Of a stretch of 64,000 nucleotides of DNA, positions 27,722-45,292 are shown in pieces. Position 1 is the stretch's first letter. Every line of letters begins with the position of its first letter. Both the position numbers and the translations under genes were made by a program. The notes beneath the pieces are model-generated. The model was not told the origin of the DNA. It made no database searches and saw nothing but the letters and a program-made list of their open reading frames with translations. Origin of the DNA: an uncultured Alphaproteobacteria bacterium (GTDB lineage Bacteria > Pseudomonadota > Alphaproteobacteria > Rs-D84); assembly GCA_944392595.1 (NCBI GenBank), contig CALXXD010000002.1:65027-129026 (forward strand). The letters run 5' to 3'.

Positions 27722-28050
27722 ATCAATCCAGTTGCTGGGTTTCTGTTGCCGGGCACCCAGCAGCCCCGCAATAGGCTTAAACGGATATAACTAACAATTG
27801 CCAATTATACCCAAACGCCAATTAGGCAGCCATTGCAAGGCGAACGTTGTCGTTCGCAGCGATTCTATCGCCATTCAGTTTTTATTCGGCTTTTAACGAC
27901 GCCACGTCGGATTCAACCGATTTGCCTTTACTTCGCCTGTCGAAACTATGTCAGCCCCCATATTTTTATTGGTGGAGCTGTGGGGTACCGCCCCCCAGTC
28001 CAAAACGACTATTCCGCAACGGATTCAGAATCATCATCGCTTTCGCGACA
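27722..28050 (-). ncRNA. ssrA: tmRNA (ssrA), circularly permuted two-piece alphaproteobacterial type
   Basis: Read on the minus strand. The acceptor piece ends ...GGGGGGCGGTACCCCACAGCTCCACCA, with the 3' A at 27970. After a 10-nt spacer the coding piece starts GGGGCTGACATAGTTTCGACAGG at 27959. The tag ORF is GCG AAC GAC AAC GTT CGC CTT GCA ATG GCT GCC TAA (27857 to 27822), which translates to ANDNVRLAMAA*. The outer boundaries are approximate. Confidence 0.85.
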
Positions 28051-28093
28051 GCGTAAATTATAATATTTAATGGTGGCAATTGCAAGTTTTTAA

Positions 28094-35578: not shown

Positions 35579-35581
35579 TAC

Positions 35582-35609
35582 TTGCAAATAAAAACGAAAT
35601 CTGTATAAT
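35582..35609 (+). promoter_or_regulatory. Sigma70-like promoter of tRNA-Ser(CGA)
   Basis: TTGCAA (35582-35587), a 16-nt spacer, then TATAAT (35604-35609), 12 nt upstream of the tRNA. Confidence 0.5.
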
Positions 35610-35620
35610 CACACATCGTC

Positions 35621-35710
35621 GGAGACGTGGCAGAGTGGTTGAATGCGCGCGACTCGAAATCGCGTATACGGGCAACCGTATCAAGGGTTCAAATCCCTTC
35701 GTCTCCGCCA
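35621..35710 (+). tRNA. tRNA-Ser (anticodon CGA), CCA encoded
   Basis: GGAGACG...anticodon arm CGCGA-CTCGAAA-TCGCG, a long variable arm, T-arm AGGGT-TCAAATC-CCTT, and acceptor CGTCTCC-G-CCA. Confidence 0.93.
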
Positions 35711-35716
35711 GGAACT

Positions 35717-35738
35717 ATACCGCATCGCGGTATTTTTT
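35717..35738 (+). terminator. Terminator after tRNA-Ser(CGA)
   Basis: ATACCGC-ATC-GCGGTAT followed by T6. A second hairpin plus T-run lies at 35782-35807. Confidence 0.7.
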
Positions 35739-35802
35739 ATTGAATTATCAGCCGTTTTATGATATAATTGCACGTAACAATCGGACGCCAACGCGTCCGT
35801 AT

Positions 35803-35843
35803 TTTTTATCCCGCCCGCGGGATTTTTTTTATTTAGCAAAAGG
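35803..35843 (+). repeat. 40-bp direct repeat, copy 1 (hairpin ATCCCGC-CC-GCGGGAT, T-run, ATTTAGCAAAAGG)
   Basis: TTTTTATCCCGCCCGCGGGATTTTTTT(T)ATTTAGCAAAAGG. It is identical to 36370-36409 except for T-run length. Confidence 0.9.
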
Positions 35844-35995
35844 AAACGAATACCTACGGTCGTGATGGTTTTACTATTCATGGTGGTTTATTCCCAGGTT
35901 CCGCGGGCTGTATAGATTTAACAGGACAAATCAGTATGTTTATATCATGGTTGGAAAGCACTGGAAAAGACCTGGTCGTTTATGTAGAATATTAA
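35837..35995 (+). pseudogene. 5'-truncated remnant of an L,D-transpeptidase-fold (YkuD/Tlde1-like) gene
   Basis: The frame is open only from the TAG at 35834-35836 and reads QKETNTYGRDGFTIHGGLFPGSAGCIDLTGQISMFISWLESTGKDLVVYVEY*. It contains an H-G-G...S-x-G-C-I catalytic-type motif. There is no start codon upstream of the motif, and the frame begins inside repeat copy 1. Confidence 0.5.
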
Positions 35996-36002
35996 TACAT
36001 CA

Positions 36003-36350
36003 ATGGTATCAAAAACAATGGATAAAGACAATCAGACTGTTTTATATACGAAAAGCGTACTGTATTTAGCGATAGTATTGTTTTTTATAAACGATACACG
36101 AAACTTACTGCTAAATCACAAGTGGAATGGTATGTTGTCCTGGATAACATTCGATACAAAGTACTTAATTACATTAGATCTTGTGTTATCATTTATCTTT
36201 TTACTGATGTTTGTATTGACCATATTTCCAACTGTCAAAATATACAAATGGAAAACATTATGGATTTTTCTGTTATCCGTTCCAGCAATGTTCATAATGT
36301 TTTTGGTGTATATATACTTTTTATTCCCACTATTACACCTGATATTTTAA
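36003..36350 (+). CDS. Small multi-TM membrane protein (candidate cognate immunity protein)
   Basis: 115 aa and visibly AT-rich, with 3-4 hydrophobic segments (VLYLAIVLFFI, LDLVLSFIFLLMFVLTIF, LWIFLLSVPAMFIMFLVYIYFLF). The ATG lies 8 nt after the stop codon of the remnant. Confidence 0.5.
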   Translation: MVSKTMDKDNQTVLYTKSVLYLAIVLFFINDTRNLLLNHKWNGMLSWITFDTKYLITLDLVLSFIFLLMFVLTIFPTVKIYKWKTLWIFLLSVPAMFIMFLVYIYFLFPLLHLIF

Positions 36351-36369
36351 TTCATATTAAATAGATACA

Positions 36370-36409
36370 TTTTTATCCCGCCCGCGGGATTTTTTTATTT
36401 AGCAAAAGG
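36370..36409 (+). repeat. 40-bp direct repeat, copy 2 (immediately upstream of the GH108 gene)
   Basis: See copy 1. Here it is followed by TGAAACACC-ATG (36419). Confidence 0.9.
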
Positions 36410-36418
36410 TGAAACACC

Positions 36419-36970
36419 ATGTACAACAAAAATTATAAAATAAACGACACAAACTTTGATATGGCTTACGAAAAACTTGCTGAACGCGAAGGCGGCTATA
36501 CCGAAGGCACAGACCAAATTGATGACGAGCCAACCAATATGGGAATTACCCAAACCACACTGACCAATTATTCTGCAAAACACCCAGAATCAAACATGCC
36601 GTCTGATGTAAAACATTTAACGCCAAATCAAGCGCGCGAAATATATAAATCAGAATACTGGGATAACACCAATATACCGCAAATAAATAACCCACGCATA
36701 CGGAACGCAGTATTTGACATGAGTGTCATGAGTGGCCCAACAATTCCAACAAAAACAATCCAGCAAACATTAAACGAACAAATGAATGCCAATTTACCTG
36801 AAACAGGATACCTGGGCAAGCAAACTATAACCGCATTAAATGCGATTCCTGACAATAAAGTAAATGATTTTATGAAATCACTGATAGGGAACAGAATAGA
36901 ATCATTGCAAACTATGTCCAATTGGTCAACAGCCCAAGGCGGCTGGACACGACGAACAAAATCATATTAA
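36419..36970 (+). CDS. Glycoside hydrolase family 108 N-acetylmuramidase with a C-terminal PG_binding_3-like domain
   Basis: LAEREGGYTEGTDQIDDEPTNMGITQ matches the EGGY...D.GG.T..GI signature of GH108. The C-terminal part reads ...LGKQTITALNAIP...GNRIESLQ.... Confidence 0.7.
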   Translation: MYNKNYKINDTNFDMAYEKLAEREGGYTEGTDQIDDEPTNMGITQTTLTNYSAKHPESNMPSDVKHLTPNQAREIYKSEYWDNTNIPQINNPRIRNAVFDMSVMSGPTIPTKTIQQTLNEQMNANLPETGYLGKQTITALNAIPDNKVNDFMKSLIGNRIESLQTMSNWSTAQGGWTRRTKSY

Positions 36971-37407
36971 TTGTCTTGTTTTATCCACATGCCCTCAATT
37001 GTGGCTGACATACCACAAAATGCACCATCTGAATCTGGATTTTTATACTCCAGGTTCAGATTACCATTTGGCAATAATTCAAAATTAATTCCAACCGGAA
37101 CAAAATATTCTAAATCTTTGGACTTGTCATACATATATTTTTTTGAATCATATACACCATTGGCAGGCGTGTTCAACACAATCACACCGTTCGCTTCACA
37201 GATATGAAATTTACGCCATGATTGCAATTTAAAATCGCATTTACCGTTGTCGCAATTGGATATTTCCATTTTTCCGCCAAAATCACAATCTGCACTGTTC
37301 AATTGCCAAACACCACCCCAATCATGAATTGTGTCATCGACAATGGCACACCCGCCCATCACAGACAGCAATACAAAAACAAATAAACAACGCAACTTTT
37401 TCATCAC
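36967..37407 (-). CDS. Hypothetical lipoprotein
   Basis: MMKKLRCLFVFVLLSVMGGC contains a lipobox. Cys-rich. It converges on the GH108 gene and overlaps it by 4 bp. Confidence 0.55.
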   Translation of the reverse strand: MMKKLRCLFVFVLLSVMGGCAIVDDTIHDWGGVWQLNSADCDFGGKMEISNCDNGKCDFKLQSWRKFHICEANGVIVLNTPANGVYDSKKYMYDKSKDLEYFVPVGINFELLPNGNLNLEYKNPDSDGAFCGMSATIEGMWIKQDN

Positions 37408-37509
37408 TGAAATTGTACATCTTTTATATAACCACAGTCAAACGAGTTTTTTGTCCGTCCAATCAAAAACAATTTGATTTTTTGTGGGATGCGATACAAT
37501 ATTGCCGAT

Positions 37510-37854
37510 ATGAAATCTTTTAACGACCAGGTTTATGACATTGTTGCGCGAATCCCGGCGGGGCGGGTGGCGACGTATGGACAAATTGCGCGCATGATTG
37601 GGCGGCCACGTATGGCGCGATTTGTTGGATACGCATCAAACAATAAAAACAGTTGGCATCTGCCGTGGCATCGCGTGGTGTTTAAAGATGGATCGCTGTG
37701 CGGGCCCGGATTTTTCGAACAACAATACAAAGCCCTGAAATCCGAAGGCGTAAAATTCACCCGTGATAAACGCGTAAAAATGGACGAATACCAATGGAAT
37801 CCCGAACGCGATGGCGTCCCAATGGACATCCGCGATTTCCCATTAGTGTTTTAA
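37510..37854 (+). CDS. atl: Alkyltransferase-like protein (ATL; MGMT-family DNA-binding domain with Cys replaced by Trp)
   Basis: VYDIVARIPAGRVATYGQIARMIG...LPWHRVV. PWHRV replaces the PCHRV active site, as in YbaZ/Atl1. Confidence 0.8.
   Translation: MKSFNDQVYDIVARIPAGRVATYGQIARMIGRPRMARFVGYASNNKNSWHLPWHRVVFKDGSLCGPGFFEQQYKALKSEGVKFTRDKRVKMDEYQWNPERDGVPMDIRDFPLVF
37751..37854 (+). repeat. Inverted repeat, left arm (last 34 codons plus stop of atl)
   Basis: 104 bp that is 101/104 identical to the reverse complement of 45189-45292. Confidence 0.95.
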
Positions 37855-44700: not shown

Positions 44701-45192
44701 ACTACTGATCATGTCTATGCTGTATCTTATGCTGGCACTGGTGCAATCAGCAATGGCGGCGCTGGACTGTCCGCCGAGCATATTGGCGTACAAGAAGTCG
44801 GTAATCGTCGTGTGGGATTTCTTAATGTATATAAAAACAGTGACAAAAATGTTTTTTATAATAACGCAATAATAGAAGATTTAAGTGACGATATTTTGAA
44901 AAATCCTTTGTCTTCATCTGGTGCTTCAAATATCCCTGAAACGCTTATAACACCACAGGATAATCCAGTAATAGACAGATATATTGTGGTAAATGATGGG
45001 TATTTTAAATTGGAAAACGACAATGAAATTGATAGATTGGTTATGGATGCATTTGCGCCGGATTTAAGCAAAACATATAATGCCGATATGATACGAAGAA
45101 TCGAAAATGTTGAAAGCGGTATGACGAACGGCGTGCCTCAAACATATAATTTGCCAGAAAATGTAATAAACAGTGTATCCCCGGGGAATTAA
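41767..45192 (+). CDS. Large (1,141 aa) secreted/membrane hypothetical protein
   Basis: TTG start with signal peptide MKRILFCVLLSFVTYSARA. It has a Cys-rich N-terminal ~400 aa, a Gly-zipper TM region (VVAGYVIGAVVIVGGTVLTIASGGAAAPVVINGVAMLAGDLAI), a coiled-coil middle and a C-terminal domain I do not recognise. Confidence 0.65.
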   Translation: MKRILFCVLLSFVTYSARAESWMLFSAAAVEDSINTMVEPEYRAATADEYEKQMDSTNGKITASGILSVCATAGWAINTDEGFYFCRGFVDNIAELSGVSSNAAKQCKQMNGIRTVLDDGSNQCIGRDGTVLVYSNACRGGDGECVEFFADLRTQVPNALEFIYEYGKSNNLKFTCSNEIVDIHKIGSDYIKCSANKTAYEFKFDTLNQSYNRRMVDSENAALCKMFGGTVAGTDDYWTMCDMERAKCDKLATFAPTIGHSAMYQGSCRISRTVNTRDNIFLNHIDGVDSYVFYDVKIRSGVAKPMLEQYLTSIFPDEEYITCDSDIVELNDPTSLGTNWIMQCTVGTQQVDFIFDELATQSDAQTMTGMDIMQCIINGGTFNGETCRGLTATECDALDAKLRASGSENGAYYDDDMRACVLGNAMATYQRNVVAGYVIGAVVIVGGTVLTIASGGAAAPVVINGVAMLAGDLAINYTIDANHRRLSEKAAKKFVDFVTDANACTTEQCALDVLEKHYATLSGVMSDLNTDDRAVVDETMDRLIGLIQTEFVACGKNDAGQTVYASPADCAMQQSKLTLLDHIDPISEVALIIGSVIYDPGYVVARFTRLKNVTKTITQTVNTLDALTSQMTRGIDNALQTLDDINDARIALQNQAETVKQLLVNNVDLIKNASTIEEAQRYADNATQLAFALQNRADDATSAVSALLRENPANELTAESLRSAQQYADEISAIARQSQEIADESTRALDAKRLQLNASKRSDMDAALAHADARRTNTSEYITEPVMYFRAIQQTDKSPEEIVQILNNAGIRASTDVSDQSAWVINRSSVSGSYELVSPFMAPETATQQFDIVNDILRQNSIRTSGAVTPTTISQIDPTVVTGTSRDQAMINIRNYFDNNPTLYEQTGLTPKSTNDELLGALIENIRHNNQFTAAEYIRSDYAGQDVLYRGQKFSTSDPGSAYANMSPKAGTTGNALGTTDHVYAVSYAGTGAISNGGAGLSAEHIGVQEVGNRRVGFLNVYKNSDKNVFYNNAIIEDLSDDILKNPLSSSGASNIPETLITPQDNPVIDRYIVVNDGYFKLENDNEIDRLVMDAFAPDLSKTYNADMIRRIENVESGMTNGVPQTYNLPENVINSVSPGN

Positions 45193-45292
45193 AACACCAA
45201 TGGGAAATCGCGGATGTCCATTGGGACGCCATCGCGTTCGGGATTCCATTGGAATTCGTCCATCTTTACGCGTTTATCACGGGTGAATTTTA
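45189..45292 (-). repeat. Inverted repeat, right arm (orphan copy of the atl 3' end)
   Basis: The reverse complement encodes KFTRDKRVKMDEFQWNPERDGVPMDIRDFPLVF*, with one Y-to-F change and two silent changes relative to atl. Its TTAA end supplies the stop codon of the 1,141-aa ORF. Confidence 0.95.

Follow-up and report, generated by a model that had tools for sequence, protein, structure and literature searches.

Introduction

How does the catalytic end of a peptidoglycan-directed toxin, lacking a start codon, come to lie behind a tRNA gene, and what are the open reading frames next to it? We examined this question in a 64,000-nucleotide stretch of contig CALXXD010000002.1 (the window), which belongs to an uncultured gut alphaproteobacterium of the GTDB lineage Rs-D84, and in genomes of its congeners. 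Our answer is that the islet is probably a lineage-specific polymorphic toxin locus in disarmed form, aimed at peptidoglycan and inserted at tRNA-Ser(CGA). We conclude that the toxin family is unpublished and that the window contains one of its members, now disarmed.

The Insert at tRNA-Ser(CGA)

An AT-rich insert of 1.8 kb lies directly 3' of the tRNA gene (Table 1). The GC content across positions 35750-37550 is 0.29-0.40, against ~0.44-0.52 in the flanks. In congener G017 the site is empty: only 20 nt separate the tRNA end from the ATG of the next gene. On the left the insert is bounded by the 3' end of tRNA-Ser(CGA), and on the right it ends just 5' of the ATG of the MGMT/Atl-like gene. 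The drop in GC and the empty site agree with the initial annotation of this DNA, which had placed an AT-rich islet right after the tRNA.

Table 1. Features of the insert and its flanks (positions in the window).
Feature	Position	Strand	Evidence or remark
tRNA-Ser(CGA)	35621..35710	+	ARAGORN, as tRNA-Ser(cga); Rfam tRNA, 61 bits
Hairpin 1 and T-run	35717..35741	+	Ends transcription of the tRNA or, at other loci, of whatever sits upstream
Leader promoter, TTGAAT-17-TATAAT, extended -10 (TG)	35740..35768	+	Promoter scan
Leader hairpin 2 and U-run	35782..35807	+	Terminator scan
Repeat copy A: hairpin 3 (ATCCCGC..GCGGGAT), U-run and ATTTAGCAAAAGG (RBS)	35803..35843	+	
Dead Tlde1/YkuD-type C-terminal tip, without start codon	35840..35995	+	ORF reading, Pfam, congener comparison
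TM115, 3-TM, ~30-residue loop, candidate Tlde1-tip immunity protein	36003..36350	+	Hydropathy
Repeat copy B: hairpin 3, U-run and RBS, 5' of GH108	36370..36409	+	
Headless GH108 N-acetylmuramidase warhead, EGGY, no signal peptide, no N-module	36419..36970	+	Pfam
Secreted Cys-rich protein, candidate GH108 immunity protein/inhibitor	36967..37407	-	Signal peptide, Cys20
Promoter-like site of the secreted-protein gene	37412..37441	-	TTGACT-18-TACAAT, 10/12 (promoter scan)
MGMT/Atl-like DNA-binding gene, right flank	37511..37854	+	Pfam DNA_binding_1; adjoins the tRNA in G017

The Tlde1-Type Tip

The first frame of the insert has 52 codons and reads QKETNTYGRDGFTIHGGLFPGSAGCIDLTGQISMFISWLESTGKDLVVYVEY, followed by a stop; it has no ATG, GTG or TTG start, and a TAG stands immediately 5' of it. 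It carries the catalytic His...Ser-x-Gly-Cys motif (IHGG...SAGCID), so that our reading confirms the start-less frame with the H-x-G...S-x-G-C-I pattern described before. The kinship with the L,D-transpeptidase fold proposed for the fragment was also recovered, by way of a homologue. On its own, the tip matches Pfam Tlde1_dom at positions 67-112 (or 64-112) of 120, and its score of 19.5 bits (E 0.0014) falls short of the 30.1-bit cut-off. A 150-aa protein of congener G004 shares 76% identity with the tip over residues 100-150 and passes the cut-offs for both Tlde1_dom (40.4 bits) and YkuD (33.3 bits). Because this homologue exceeds both cut-offs, the gene from which the tip descends can be assigned to the Tlde1 family. 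The tip comprises the last ~51 residues of a domain of ~140 residues; it retains the catalytic H and C and is not a complete Tlde1 catalytic domain with a start codon. A phmmer search of PDB sequences with the congener Tlde1 domain as query returned no Tlde1 chain and nothing meaningful. One assembly calls an 84-aa ORF at the tip locus.

Intact Toxins in Congeners

Full-length toxins of congeners are 340-470 aa long and consist of a lineage-specific N-module of ~200 aa and a Tlde1, GH108 or GH24 warhead, that is, one N-module is joined to alternative C-termini, as in polymorphic toxins. The only recognizable part of the N-module is a MuF-type Cys/His zinc-knuckle motif of ~50 residues (PF04233 positions 61-111, at 20.8 bits against a cut-off of 29.6 bits; PHROG head-protein families at residues 133-185). 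Each warhead has its own kind of partner: Tlde1 is accompanied by a 3-TM protein, GH108 by a convergent secreted beta-rich protein, and GH24 by a small lipoprotein. In a survey of the genus, 29 Tlde1 domains lay within open frames of 269-497 aa, and ~18 Tlde1 tips shared their start place (residues 75-119). A nucleotide-conserved block could be aligned across seven of the tips and two full-length genes. Congeners G004 and G019 harbor arrays in the order full toxin, TM gene, tip, TM gene, tip, in which the start-less tips each have a partner gene and share the homology block with the main gene. The initial annotation had seen in the fragment an orphan Tlde1-type toxin C-terminus with a membrane partner, of the kind displaced in polymorphic toxin systems; the ~18 similar tips and the arrays bear out this reading. 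An integrase alone lies near one congener toxin island.

A profile of the N-module found matches in 32 of 81 congeners and, in the 977-kb genome to which the window belongs (98.7% complete), nothing even at E<=10. Neither the N-module of the normal toxin form nor its absence from this genome had been noticed before. The initial annotation had proposed a search of the genome and its relatives for a full-length gene behind the same leader; tblastn and profile searches found no full-length Tlde1 and no second GH108 in the former, and the latter include congener G098, where a long N-module::Tlde1 gene stands behind a similar leader. Since its genome has no N-module, the organism should be unable to field these toxins itself. 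T6SS genes had been named as another item to look for: the marker TssC/VipB (PF05943) was absent from all 41 genomes searched, including this one, and the E. coli control was positive.

Origin of the Fragment

The locus in sister genome G098 is syntenic with the window: the long N-module::Tlde1 gene ends in the same tip (90% amino acid identity), and the TM gene, both hairpin copies and GH108 are present in the same order. The fragment in the window is therefore the product of a ~0.9-kb deletion through microhomology. At the junction, the RBS of the leader is joined to the Tlde1 codons T-N-T-Y-G, with a microhomology of ~8-10 nt; the deleted state is identical in all three assemblies compared (the window and two other metagenome assemblies of the same species). 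The ancestral locus would have had a leader driving an N-module::Tlde1 gene and would have been inserted where tRNA-Ser(CGA) ends. The deletion ran from the leader RBS into the nucleotide-conserved block VWLEPSKETNTYGRD; the N-module was lost together with the N-terminal two-thirds of the Tlde1 domain, and the dead tip remained. The toxin is damaged by a different lesion in each of this genome (G000), G098 and G139; all three retain an intact TM gene.

The initial annotation had offered a different origin, in which recombination through the shared 40-bp leader put GH108 in the place of a Tlde1 effector while the old immunity gene stayed. The 40-bp repeats that flank the tip and TM115 do form the layout expected from a single crossover with a circular cassette, and in G000 as in G098 the two copies have a species-specific variant of the hairpin loop in common, a hint that they exchange sequence. 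However, a swap is unnecessary, because G098 already carries both hairpin copies, and GH108 3' of its long gene. Furthermore, copy A continues the full conserved leader that is known 5' of N-module genes elsewhere, the left junction of the tip is the microhomology between RBS and codons and not an edge of the repeat, and the G139 locus likewise disfavors an exchange. We consider the swap very improbable and retain deletion as the origin of the fragment.

The Leader and Its Hairpins

A terminator scan recovered the three terminator-like hairpins (35717-35733, 35782-35799, and 35808-35823) that had been described as consecutive terminators behind the tRNA. All three are present, but the second and third lie 3' of a promoter, which had been overlooked, and are not terminators of the tRNA. 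They are part of a conserved leader that is composed of an extended -10 promoter and two hairpin/U-runs. In ten leaders from nine species, TTG and TTT.TG.TA.AAT are invariant in the promoter. The pairing of hairpin 2 is preserved between species although the sequence of the stem differs, and counterparts of hairpin 1, variable in sequence, stand 5' of the leader promoter at other loci. In intact loci the tail of copy A is followed by the ATG of the N-module, the same tail and ATG being found in G012, G098, and G006b; homologous hairpin leaders also stand 5' of GH108 in G004 and G098. In an Rfam search the tRNA was the sole match, and the leader fell into no family.

The 40-bp repeat was found at both of its previously reported positions. 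The two copies are identical at 40 of 41 positions, the difference being one extra T. Blastn and pattern searches gave exactly two copies in the genome, against a chance expectation of 0; because no others were returned, we rejected the possibility that the repeat is a common genome-wide terminator motif. The repeat is the third leader hairpin together with the RBS, and it preceded both genes already in the sister genome. The sole further occurrence of the leader in this genome is 5' of a T7-type tail-fibre gene, at C1:57300-57440.

The Retained Genes

TM115 (115 aa) begins 7 nt past the stop of the tip, with an alternative start at ATG 36018. Hydropathy gave three hydrophobic segments, in accord with the membrane protein that had been predicted just 3' of the tip. 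Homologues occur in 39 of 251 congeners; each of those that were placed against the Tlde1 hits lay directly 3' of a Tlde1 domain or tip. No family match was found in Pfam, PHROG, or NCBIfam. TM115 lacks a strong RBS of its own, and its expression is uncertain because of the weak RBS and the two terminator-like hairpins upstream. The present role of TM115 would probably be membrane immunity against the matching Tlde1 variant of neighbors. Tldi1 of Salmonella is soluble, and a multi-pass membrane protein would be unusual as an immunity protein against a periplasmic enzyme.

Besides TM115, the islet appears to retain a headless GH108 and its putative periplasmic partner. The earlier call of a GH108 muramidase with a PG-binding domain stands in its first part (PF05838, E 2.9e-17, 63.4 bits against a cut-off of 21.2 bits, with the EREGGY motif); the PG-binding domain is weakly detectable (PG_binding_1, E 0.019). 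Among congeners the GH108 domain is fused to the N-module in ~20, as the C-terminal part of 300-419-aa proteins, and is standalone in ~10. The GH108 of the window is a headless warhead of the same toxin family, a relationship that the initial annotation missed. The partner (146 aa) is convergent with GH108 here and in G004, G019, G091, and G098. Its orientation is as first described, and it has a signal peptide with Cys20; it is a lipoprotein only in some species, this one included, whereas others have an ordinary signal peptide. It has eight homologues and belongs to no family in Pfam, PHROGs, or NCBIfam. A low-confidence structural model (pLDDT 62) has eight beta strands, and a Foldseek search with this model returned generic 8-strand barrels and no match to a lysozyme inhibitor.

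In comparison with G098, dN/dS is 0.14 for TM115 and 0.09 for GH108 (dS 0.27-0.56), which indicates purifying selection on both. Because GH108 is under this selection without a delivery module, and its partner is internally deleted in G098, the headless enzyme seems to have another role.

A rival reading is a remnant phage-lysis or type-10-secretion cassette, with TM115 as the holin, GH108 as a TtsA-like, holin-dependent muramidase and the lipoprotein as a spanin-like or accessory component, which releases phage-like particles or proteins. GH108 matches the PHROG endolysin family phrog_315 and, weakly, the NCBIfam model 'holin-associated N-acetylmuramidase' (59 bits against a cut-off of 240 bits). 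Its relatives in the PDB are 7dnp, 6v40, and 6v3z; the last two, whose records read PG_binding_3 domain-containing protein and Sen1395, we take to be TtsA-type muramidases. The selection on a headless GH108 without a signal peptide, the small 3-TM protein upstream of it, and the T7-type portal and tail-fibre gene in this genome would also fit such a cassette. However, in the loci examined the TM family stands behind Tlde1 domains and tips and not behind GH108, N-module::GH108 loci have no TM gene, and TM genes duplicate along with toxin tips. The fusion of GH108 to the N-module points away from lysis as well, and the lipoprotein, which is encoded convergently and predicted to be all-beta, has no TM segment at its C-terminus. 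In these loci the TM protein is thus not coupled to the muramidase, nor is the lipoprotein of the spanin type. The initial annotation had suggested checking whether GH108 belongs to a prophage lysis cassette; it does not, and between the tRNA and the housekeeping gene the 1.8-kb insert contains no phage genes. We regard a lysis cassette as unlikely.

The islet might also be inert and decaying, with none of its ORFs expressed or functional. The toxin is dead, the remaining genes sit behind two terminator-like hairpins, the partner of GH108 has suffered its deletion in G098, and G017 lacks the islet with no visible consequence. The low dN/dS ratios of GH108 and TM115 at the observed dS argue against decay, as do the three ORFs of TM115, GH108 and the Cys-rich partner, which are intact in the window and in the two other assemblies of this species. 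Moreover, the genome is smaller than 1 Mb, and reduced genomes would usually be expected to discard dead DNA. Inert debris is an improbable explanation, and we favor a disarmed toxin locus.

Discussion

The T6SS is the known carrier of Tlde1-type enzymes, and MuF toxins are known from prophages. In the lineage studied here the T6SS is missing and the locus contains no prophage; it nevertheless keeps a rich, recombining arsenal presumably directed at peptidoglycan. Three independent losses of the toxin through differing lesions, with the candidate immunity gene kept each time, provide an example of disarmament that bears on the rise of immunity-only "cheaters" in gut communities. For annotation, the 52-codon frame should not be named a gene.

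The tandem-terminator leader, common only to the toxin islet and the phage tail-fibre gene, offers a lead on delivery. Tentatively, and with more doubt than confidence, we suggest that toxin islets and the T7-type tail-fibre gene may form one regulon, with a strong promoter and two terminators that are read through only in the presence of an active antiterminator. The N-module proteins might then travel as cargo in a domesticated podovirus-like particle that is inherited vertically (a killer gene-transfer agent); this species would have kept the particle and the antidotes and lost the warhead carrier.

Comparison with Known Systems

Orphan toxin-CT/immunity modules have been described in Rhs and CDI (CdiA) loci (Poole et al. 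2011, as cited in PMC5576092; Zhang et al. 2012, PMC3482391). As in those loci, the congener family has a constant N-terminal part and variable C-terminal tips, and start-less tips are arrayed downstream, each with its own small partner gene and with a conserved block of homology at the junction. In contrast, an entire congener protein spans just 340-470 aa, and what is swapped may be a whole warhead or no more than the final ~55 residues of the Tlde1 fold, in which both catalytic residues lie. Neither a T5SS nor a T6SS is present, and in the window the main gene is missing from the array.

MuF polymorphic toxins belong to temperate phages (Jamet et al. 2017, PMC5576092). Like them, the congener N-module has the Cys/His motif found C-terminally in minor head proteins of the MuF/SPP1-gp7 type, and behind it come a toxin domain and then a small gene. 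However, the match covers ~50 residues and is below the Pfam cut-off, and the loci are tRNA-linked islets of 2-6 kb and not prophages. The window has neither an N-terminal PF04233 domain nor a prophage location, the N-module being absent genome-wide. The warheads of the congener family would hit peptidoglycan, whereas Jamet et al. 2017 (PMC5576092) make no mention of peptidoglycan, lysozyme, or orphan modules.

Tlde1a/Tldi1a is a T6SS effector-immunity pair of Salmonella Typhimurium (PF10908; bioRxiv 10.1101/2022.08.05.502956, PMC9638812). The L,D-transpeptidase-like fold, the H...SxGC motif and the partner gene directly 3' are common to both systems. Unlike in Salmonella, there is no T6SS in the sample of the genus and order that could deliver the toxin, the partner is a 3-TM membrane protein and not a soluble periplasmic one, and the window holds the last third of the domain. 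GH108 enzymes of the TtsA type (6v40, 6v3z) resemble the GH108 of the window: both combine a catalytic domain with a PG-binding-type region at the C-terminus and lack a signal peptide. The similarity amounts to only 33-41 bits, however, and the domain described here also occurs fused to the N-module and has a dedicated convergent secreted partner.

Orphan immunity genes and acquired interbacterial defence clusters were reportedly described in gut Bacteroidales by Ross et al. in 2019. There, as here, immunity genes are retained without the cognate toxin and would shield their host from the weapons of neighbors in the gut. In the lineage studied here, however, the candidate immunity gene is not gathered in a recombinase-linked array; it appears to have been stranded by the decay of the resident toxin, through three independent lesions in three species.

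Layout and insertion site of the islet

The GC content is 0.29-0.40 from tRNA-Ser(cga) to approximately position 37550, versus 0.44-0.52 in both flanks. Scans and Pfam searches confirmed the layout observed in the initial annotation (tRNA, start-less frame, ORF with transmembrane segments, GH108, convergent ORF, and repeat). The start-less frame matched positions 67-112 of the 120 in Pfam Tlde1_dom (E 0.0014), a match too weak to reach the cut-off. Exactly two copies of the 40-bp repeat are present in the 977-kb genome.

Features of the islet (window positions)
Feature	Position	Remarks
tRNA-Ser(cga)	35621-35710	ARAGORN
Terminator-like hairpins (n=4)	35717-35733, 35782-35799, 35808-35823, 36375-36390	scan
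Promoter TTGAAT-17-TATAAT, extended -10 TG	35740-35768	scan; between hairpins 1 and 2
Start-less frame, QKETNTYGRDGFTIHGGLFPGSAGCIDLTGQISMFISWLESTGKDLVVYVEY*	stop at 35995	TAG directly 5'
115-aa protein (TM115)	36003-36350	three hydrophobic segments
GH108 muramidase	36419-36970	E 2.9e-17, EGGY motif; without signal peptide
146-aa partner protein, convergent	36967-37407	signal peptide, Cys20
40-bp repeat, two copies	35803-35843 and 36370-36409	copies differ by one T

The islet is an insertion. Congener G017 provides the closest empty site: 20 nt separate the tRNA CCGCCA from the ATG of the MGMT-like gene (37511 in the window). Other congeners carry related islets 3' of tRNA-Ser(cga) or tRNA-Ser(gga). 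In congener G098, the 3' end of the tRNA is present a second time just 5' of the islet, and in congener G004 an integrase adjoins the island; both are signs of past site-specific integration. The G098 copy (aatcccttcatctccgcca) ends a 180-bp insert between tRNA and islet (locus L053, G098:C2, 157-336) and looks like an att-type duplication from another integrative element.

In most congeners, including G003, G004, G006, G008, G013-16, G019, and G021-24, tRNA-Ser(CGA) with its promoter (window 35581-35710) points the other way with respect to the amidase and MGMT-like genes; G007, G011, G012, G017, G018, and G020 have the orientation of the window. The segment at the 3' end (37751-37854) of the MGMT-like gene recurs as a 104-bp, 97% identical, inverted copy 7.3 kb away (45189-45292, minus strand), between two convergent genes; an inversion or rearrangement may have left it there. 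The window also contains a permuted (two-piece) tmRNA gene at 27731-28062, as expected for Alphaproteobacteria.

Origin of the start-less tip

The islet of G098 is syntenic and is flanked by the same tRNA and MGMT-like genes. It contains the leader, a long gene joining an N-module (the ~200-aa N-terminal part of congener toxins) to Tlde1, a TM protein, a second hairpin copy, GH108, and the partner. Identities between window and G098 are 90% for the tip (the last ~51 residues of the Tlde1 domain), 84% for the TM protein, and 95% for GH108. In a three-way alignment, the window matches the G098 leader up to AAAAGGAAA and then continues with the Tlde1 codons T-N-T-Y-G-R-D; the parental sequences have ~8-10 nt in common at the junction. 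The tip is thus the product of a deletion of roughly 0.9 kb, rather than of the effector swap through a shared leader that had been proposed initially. Both hairpin copies are older than the deletion. Two other assemblies of the same species show the same deleted state. In a conspecific assembly (L122, JGI 3300000304, 2724-2978), TAC replaces the TAG 5' of the tip, and leader and dead tip are merged into a called 84-aa "gene", probably an annotation artefact.

Seven tips from other genomes and two full-length genes align over the block TGGTTGGAACCATCAAAAGAAACCAATACATACGGTCGTGATGA, within which most tips start. Conservation in this block extends to third codon positions, and at least three different sequences flank the tips on the left. 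This marks a recombination or deletion hot spot delimiting the swappable tip of ~55 residues.

Intact toxins and arrays in congeners

The G004 array begins with a leader, an N-module with the MuF motif fused to a GH24 lysozyme, a lipoprotein, a complete 150-aa Tlde1 domain scoring above the Tlde1_dom and YkuD cut-offs, and TM117; it continues with a start-less Tlde1 tip, TM118, a second tip, a hairpin leader, GH108, and a convergent secreted protein. The window tip and residues 100-150 of the G004 Tlde1 domain share 76% identity; for GH108 and partner, identity to the G004 proteins is 58% and 46%.

Among 81 congeners, 29 Tlde1 domains terminate open frames of 269-497 aa, and ~18 matches are C-terminal tips that start at residues 75-119, in frames of 36-135 aa. 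GH108 is fused (300-419 aa) in ~20 genomes, including G091 with the same convergent partner, and standalone in ~10. The N-module profile matches 32 of the 81 (26 matches are full-length); the genome holding the window has no match even at E<=10. The likeness of the N-module to phage MuF/minor-head proteins is confined to residues ~133-185. In public records, the N-module of same-genus relatives occurs in entries named Candidatus Enterousia or gut "Alphaproteobacteria bacterium" MAGs; outside this lineage, nothing of it was found beyond the MuF-type motif.

Partners and proposed disarmament

TM115-family proteins are present in 39 of 251 congeners, and all members whose positions were compared with Tlde1 matches sit directly 3' of a Tlde1 domain or tip. 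Identical tips are paired with identical TM proteins in G004 and G019, and similar tips with similar TM proteins in G098, G139, and the genome of the window (G000). Each warhead (C-terminal toxin domain) type has its own partner type, which fits a toxin-immunity logic rather than a holin-endolysin logic. A weak promoter-like site (TGGAAA-17-TAGAAT, 35962-35990) is located in the 3' end of the tip just 5' of TM115; its hexamers can also be read in G098 and G004. The candidate immunity gene might have an internal promoter here, or the site may simply reflect coding constraint.

The dN/dS ratios between G000 and G098 are 0.14 (TM115) and 0.09 (GH108), at dS 0.27-0.56. The lesion of the Tlde1 toxin differs in three genomes: G000 has the deletion described above, G098 a frameshifting deletion at the 5' end, and G139 has lost the zinc knuckle in frame. 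In all three the TM gene is intact. We therefore regard the islet as disarmed; it would keep candidate immunity to a neighbour's Tlde1 variant, together with the headless GH108 (lacking an N-module) and its periplasmic partner. The headless GH108 may have a role of its own, because in G098 the partner is internally deleted and GH108 is intact. PDB relatives of the window GH108 are 6v40 and 6v3z, which we take to be TtsA-type release muramidases. At L013 (minus strand of G019:C14, 10100-10312), the N-terminal 23 residues of the N-module (MQTPKILQDLISSPEYGDKNSET) are joined to the last 47 of GH108 in a 70-aa chimera beside an intact convergent partner gene, another deletion disarming a toxin and sparing its partner.

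Leader and delivery

The promoter is common to ten leaders from nine species, as are two GC hairpins, each followed by a U-run, and the RBS AAAAGG; stem sequences vary and pairing is kept. In some loci, the leader also precedes headless warheads. The genome of the window has 607 terminator-like sites and three tandem pairs only, two of which lie 3' of a TGnTAnAAT promoter: the islet and C1:57335-57388. The latter belongs to a leader outside the window (C1:57300-57438, minus strand; extended -10 promoter, two tandem hairpin/U-runs, AAAAGGA RBS) in front of the gene for a 313-aa protein whose N-terminal domain is of the T7 tail-fibre type (Pfam E 2.3e-5). A T7-type portal (PF12236, 262 bits) is encoded at C8:38795-39982, also outside the window. 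Of 25 genomes across the order, 23 have a single copy of this portal, against 0 of 14 control genomes; the distribution suggests that a phage-like gene set is inherited vertically. The toxin family would be tied to a domesticated podovirus-like particle by regulation only. An extended -10 promoter of this kind, with a leader containing a single hairpin/U-run, also precedes an EcoRI-type adenine methyltransferase gene outside the window (C7:42442-42546).

Comparison with known systems

TssC was absent from the 41 relatives examined. In published papers, MuF toxins belong exclusively to temperate phages, and peptidoglycan warheads or orphan modules are not mentioned; the subject of the Tlde1 papers is T6SS, and a text search of the Enterousia genome paper found no mention of toxin, phage, or secretion system. 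The toxin family is therefore a variant of polymorphic toxin systems that these papers do not describe, and it is represented in the window by a decayed copy.
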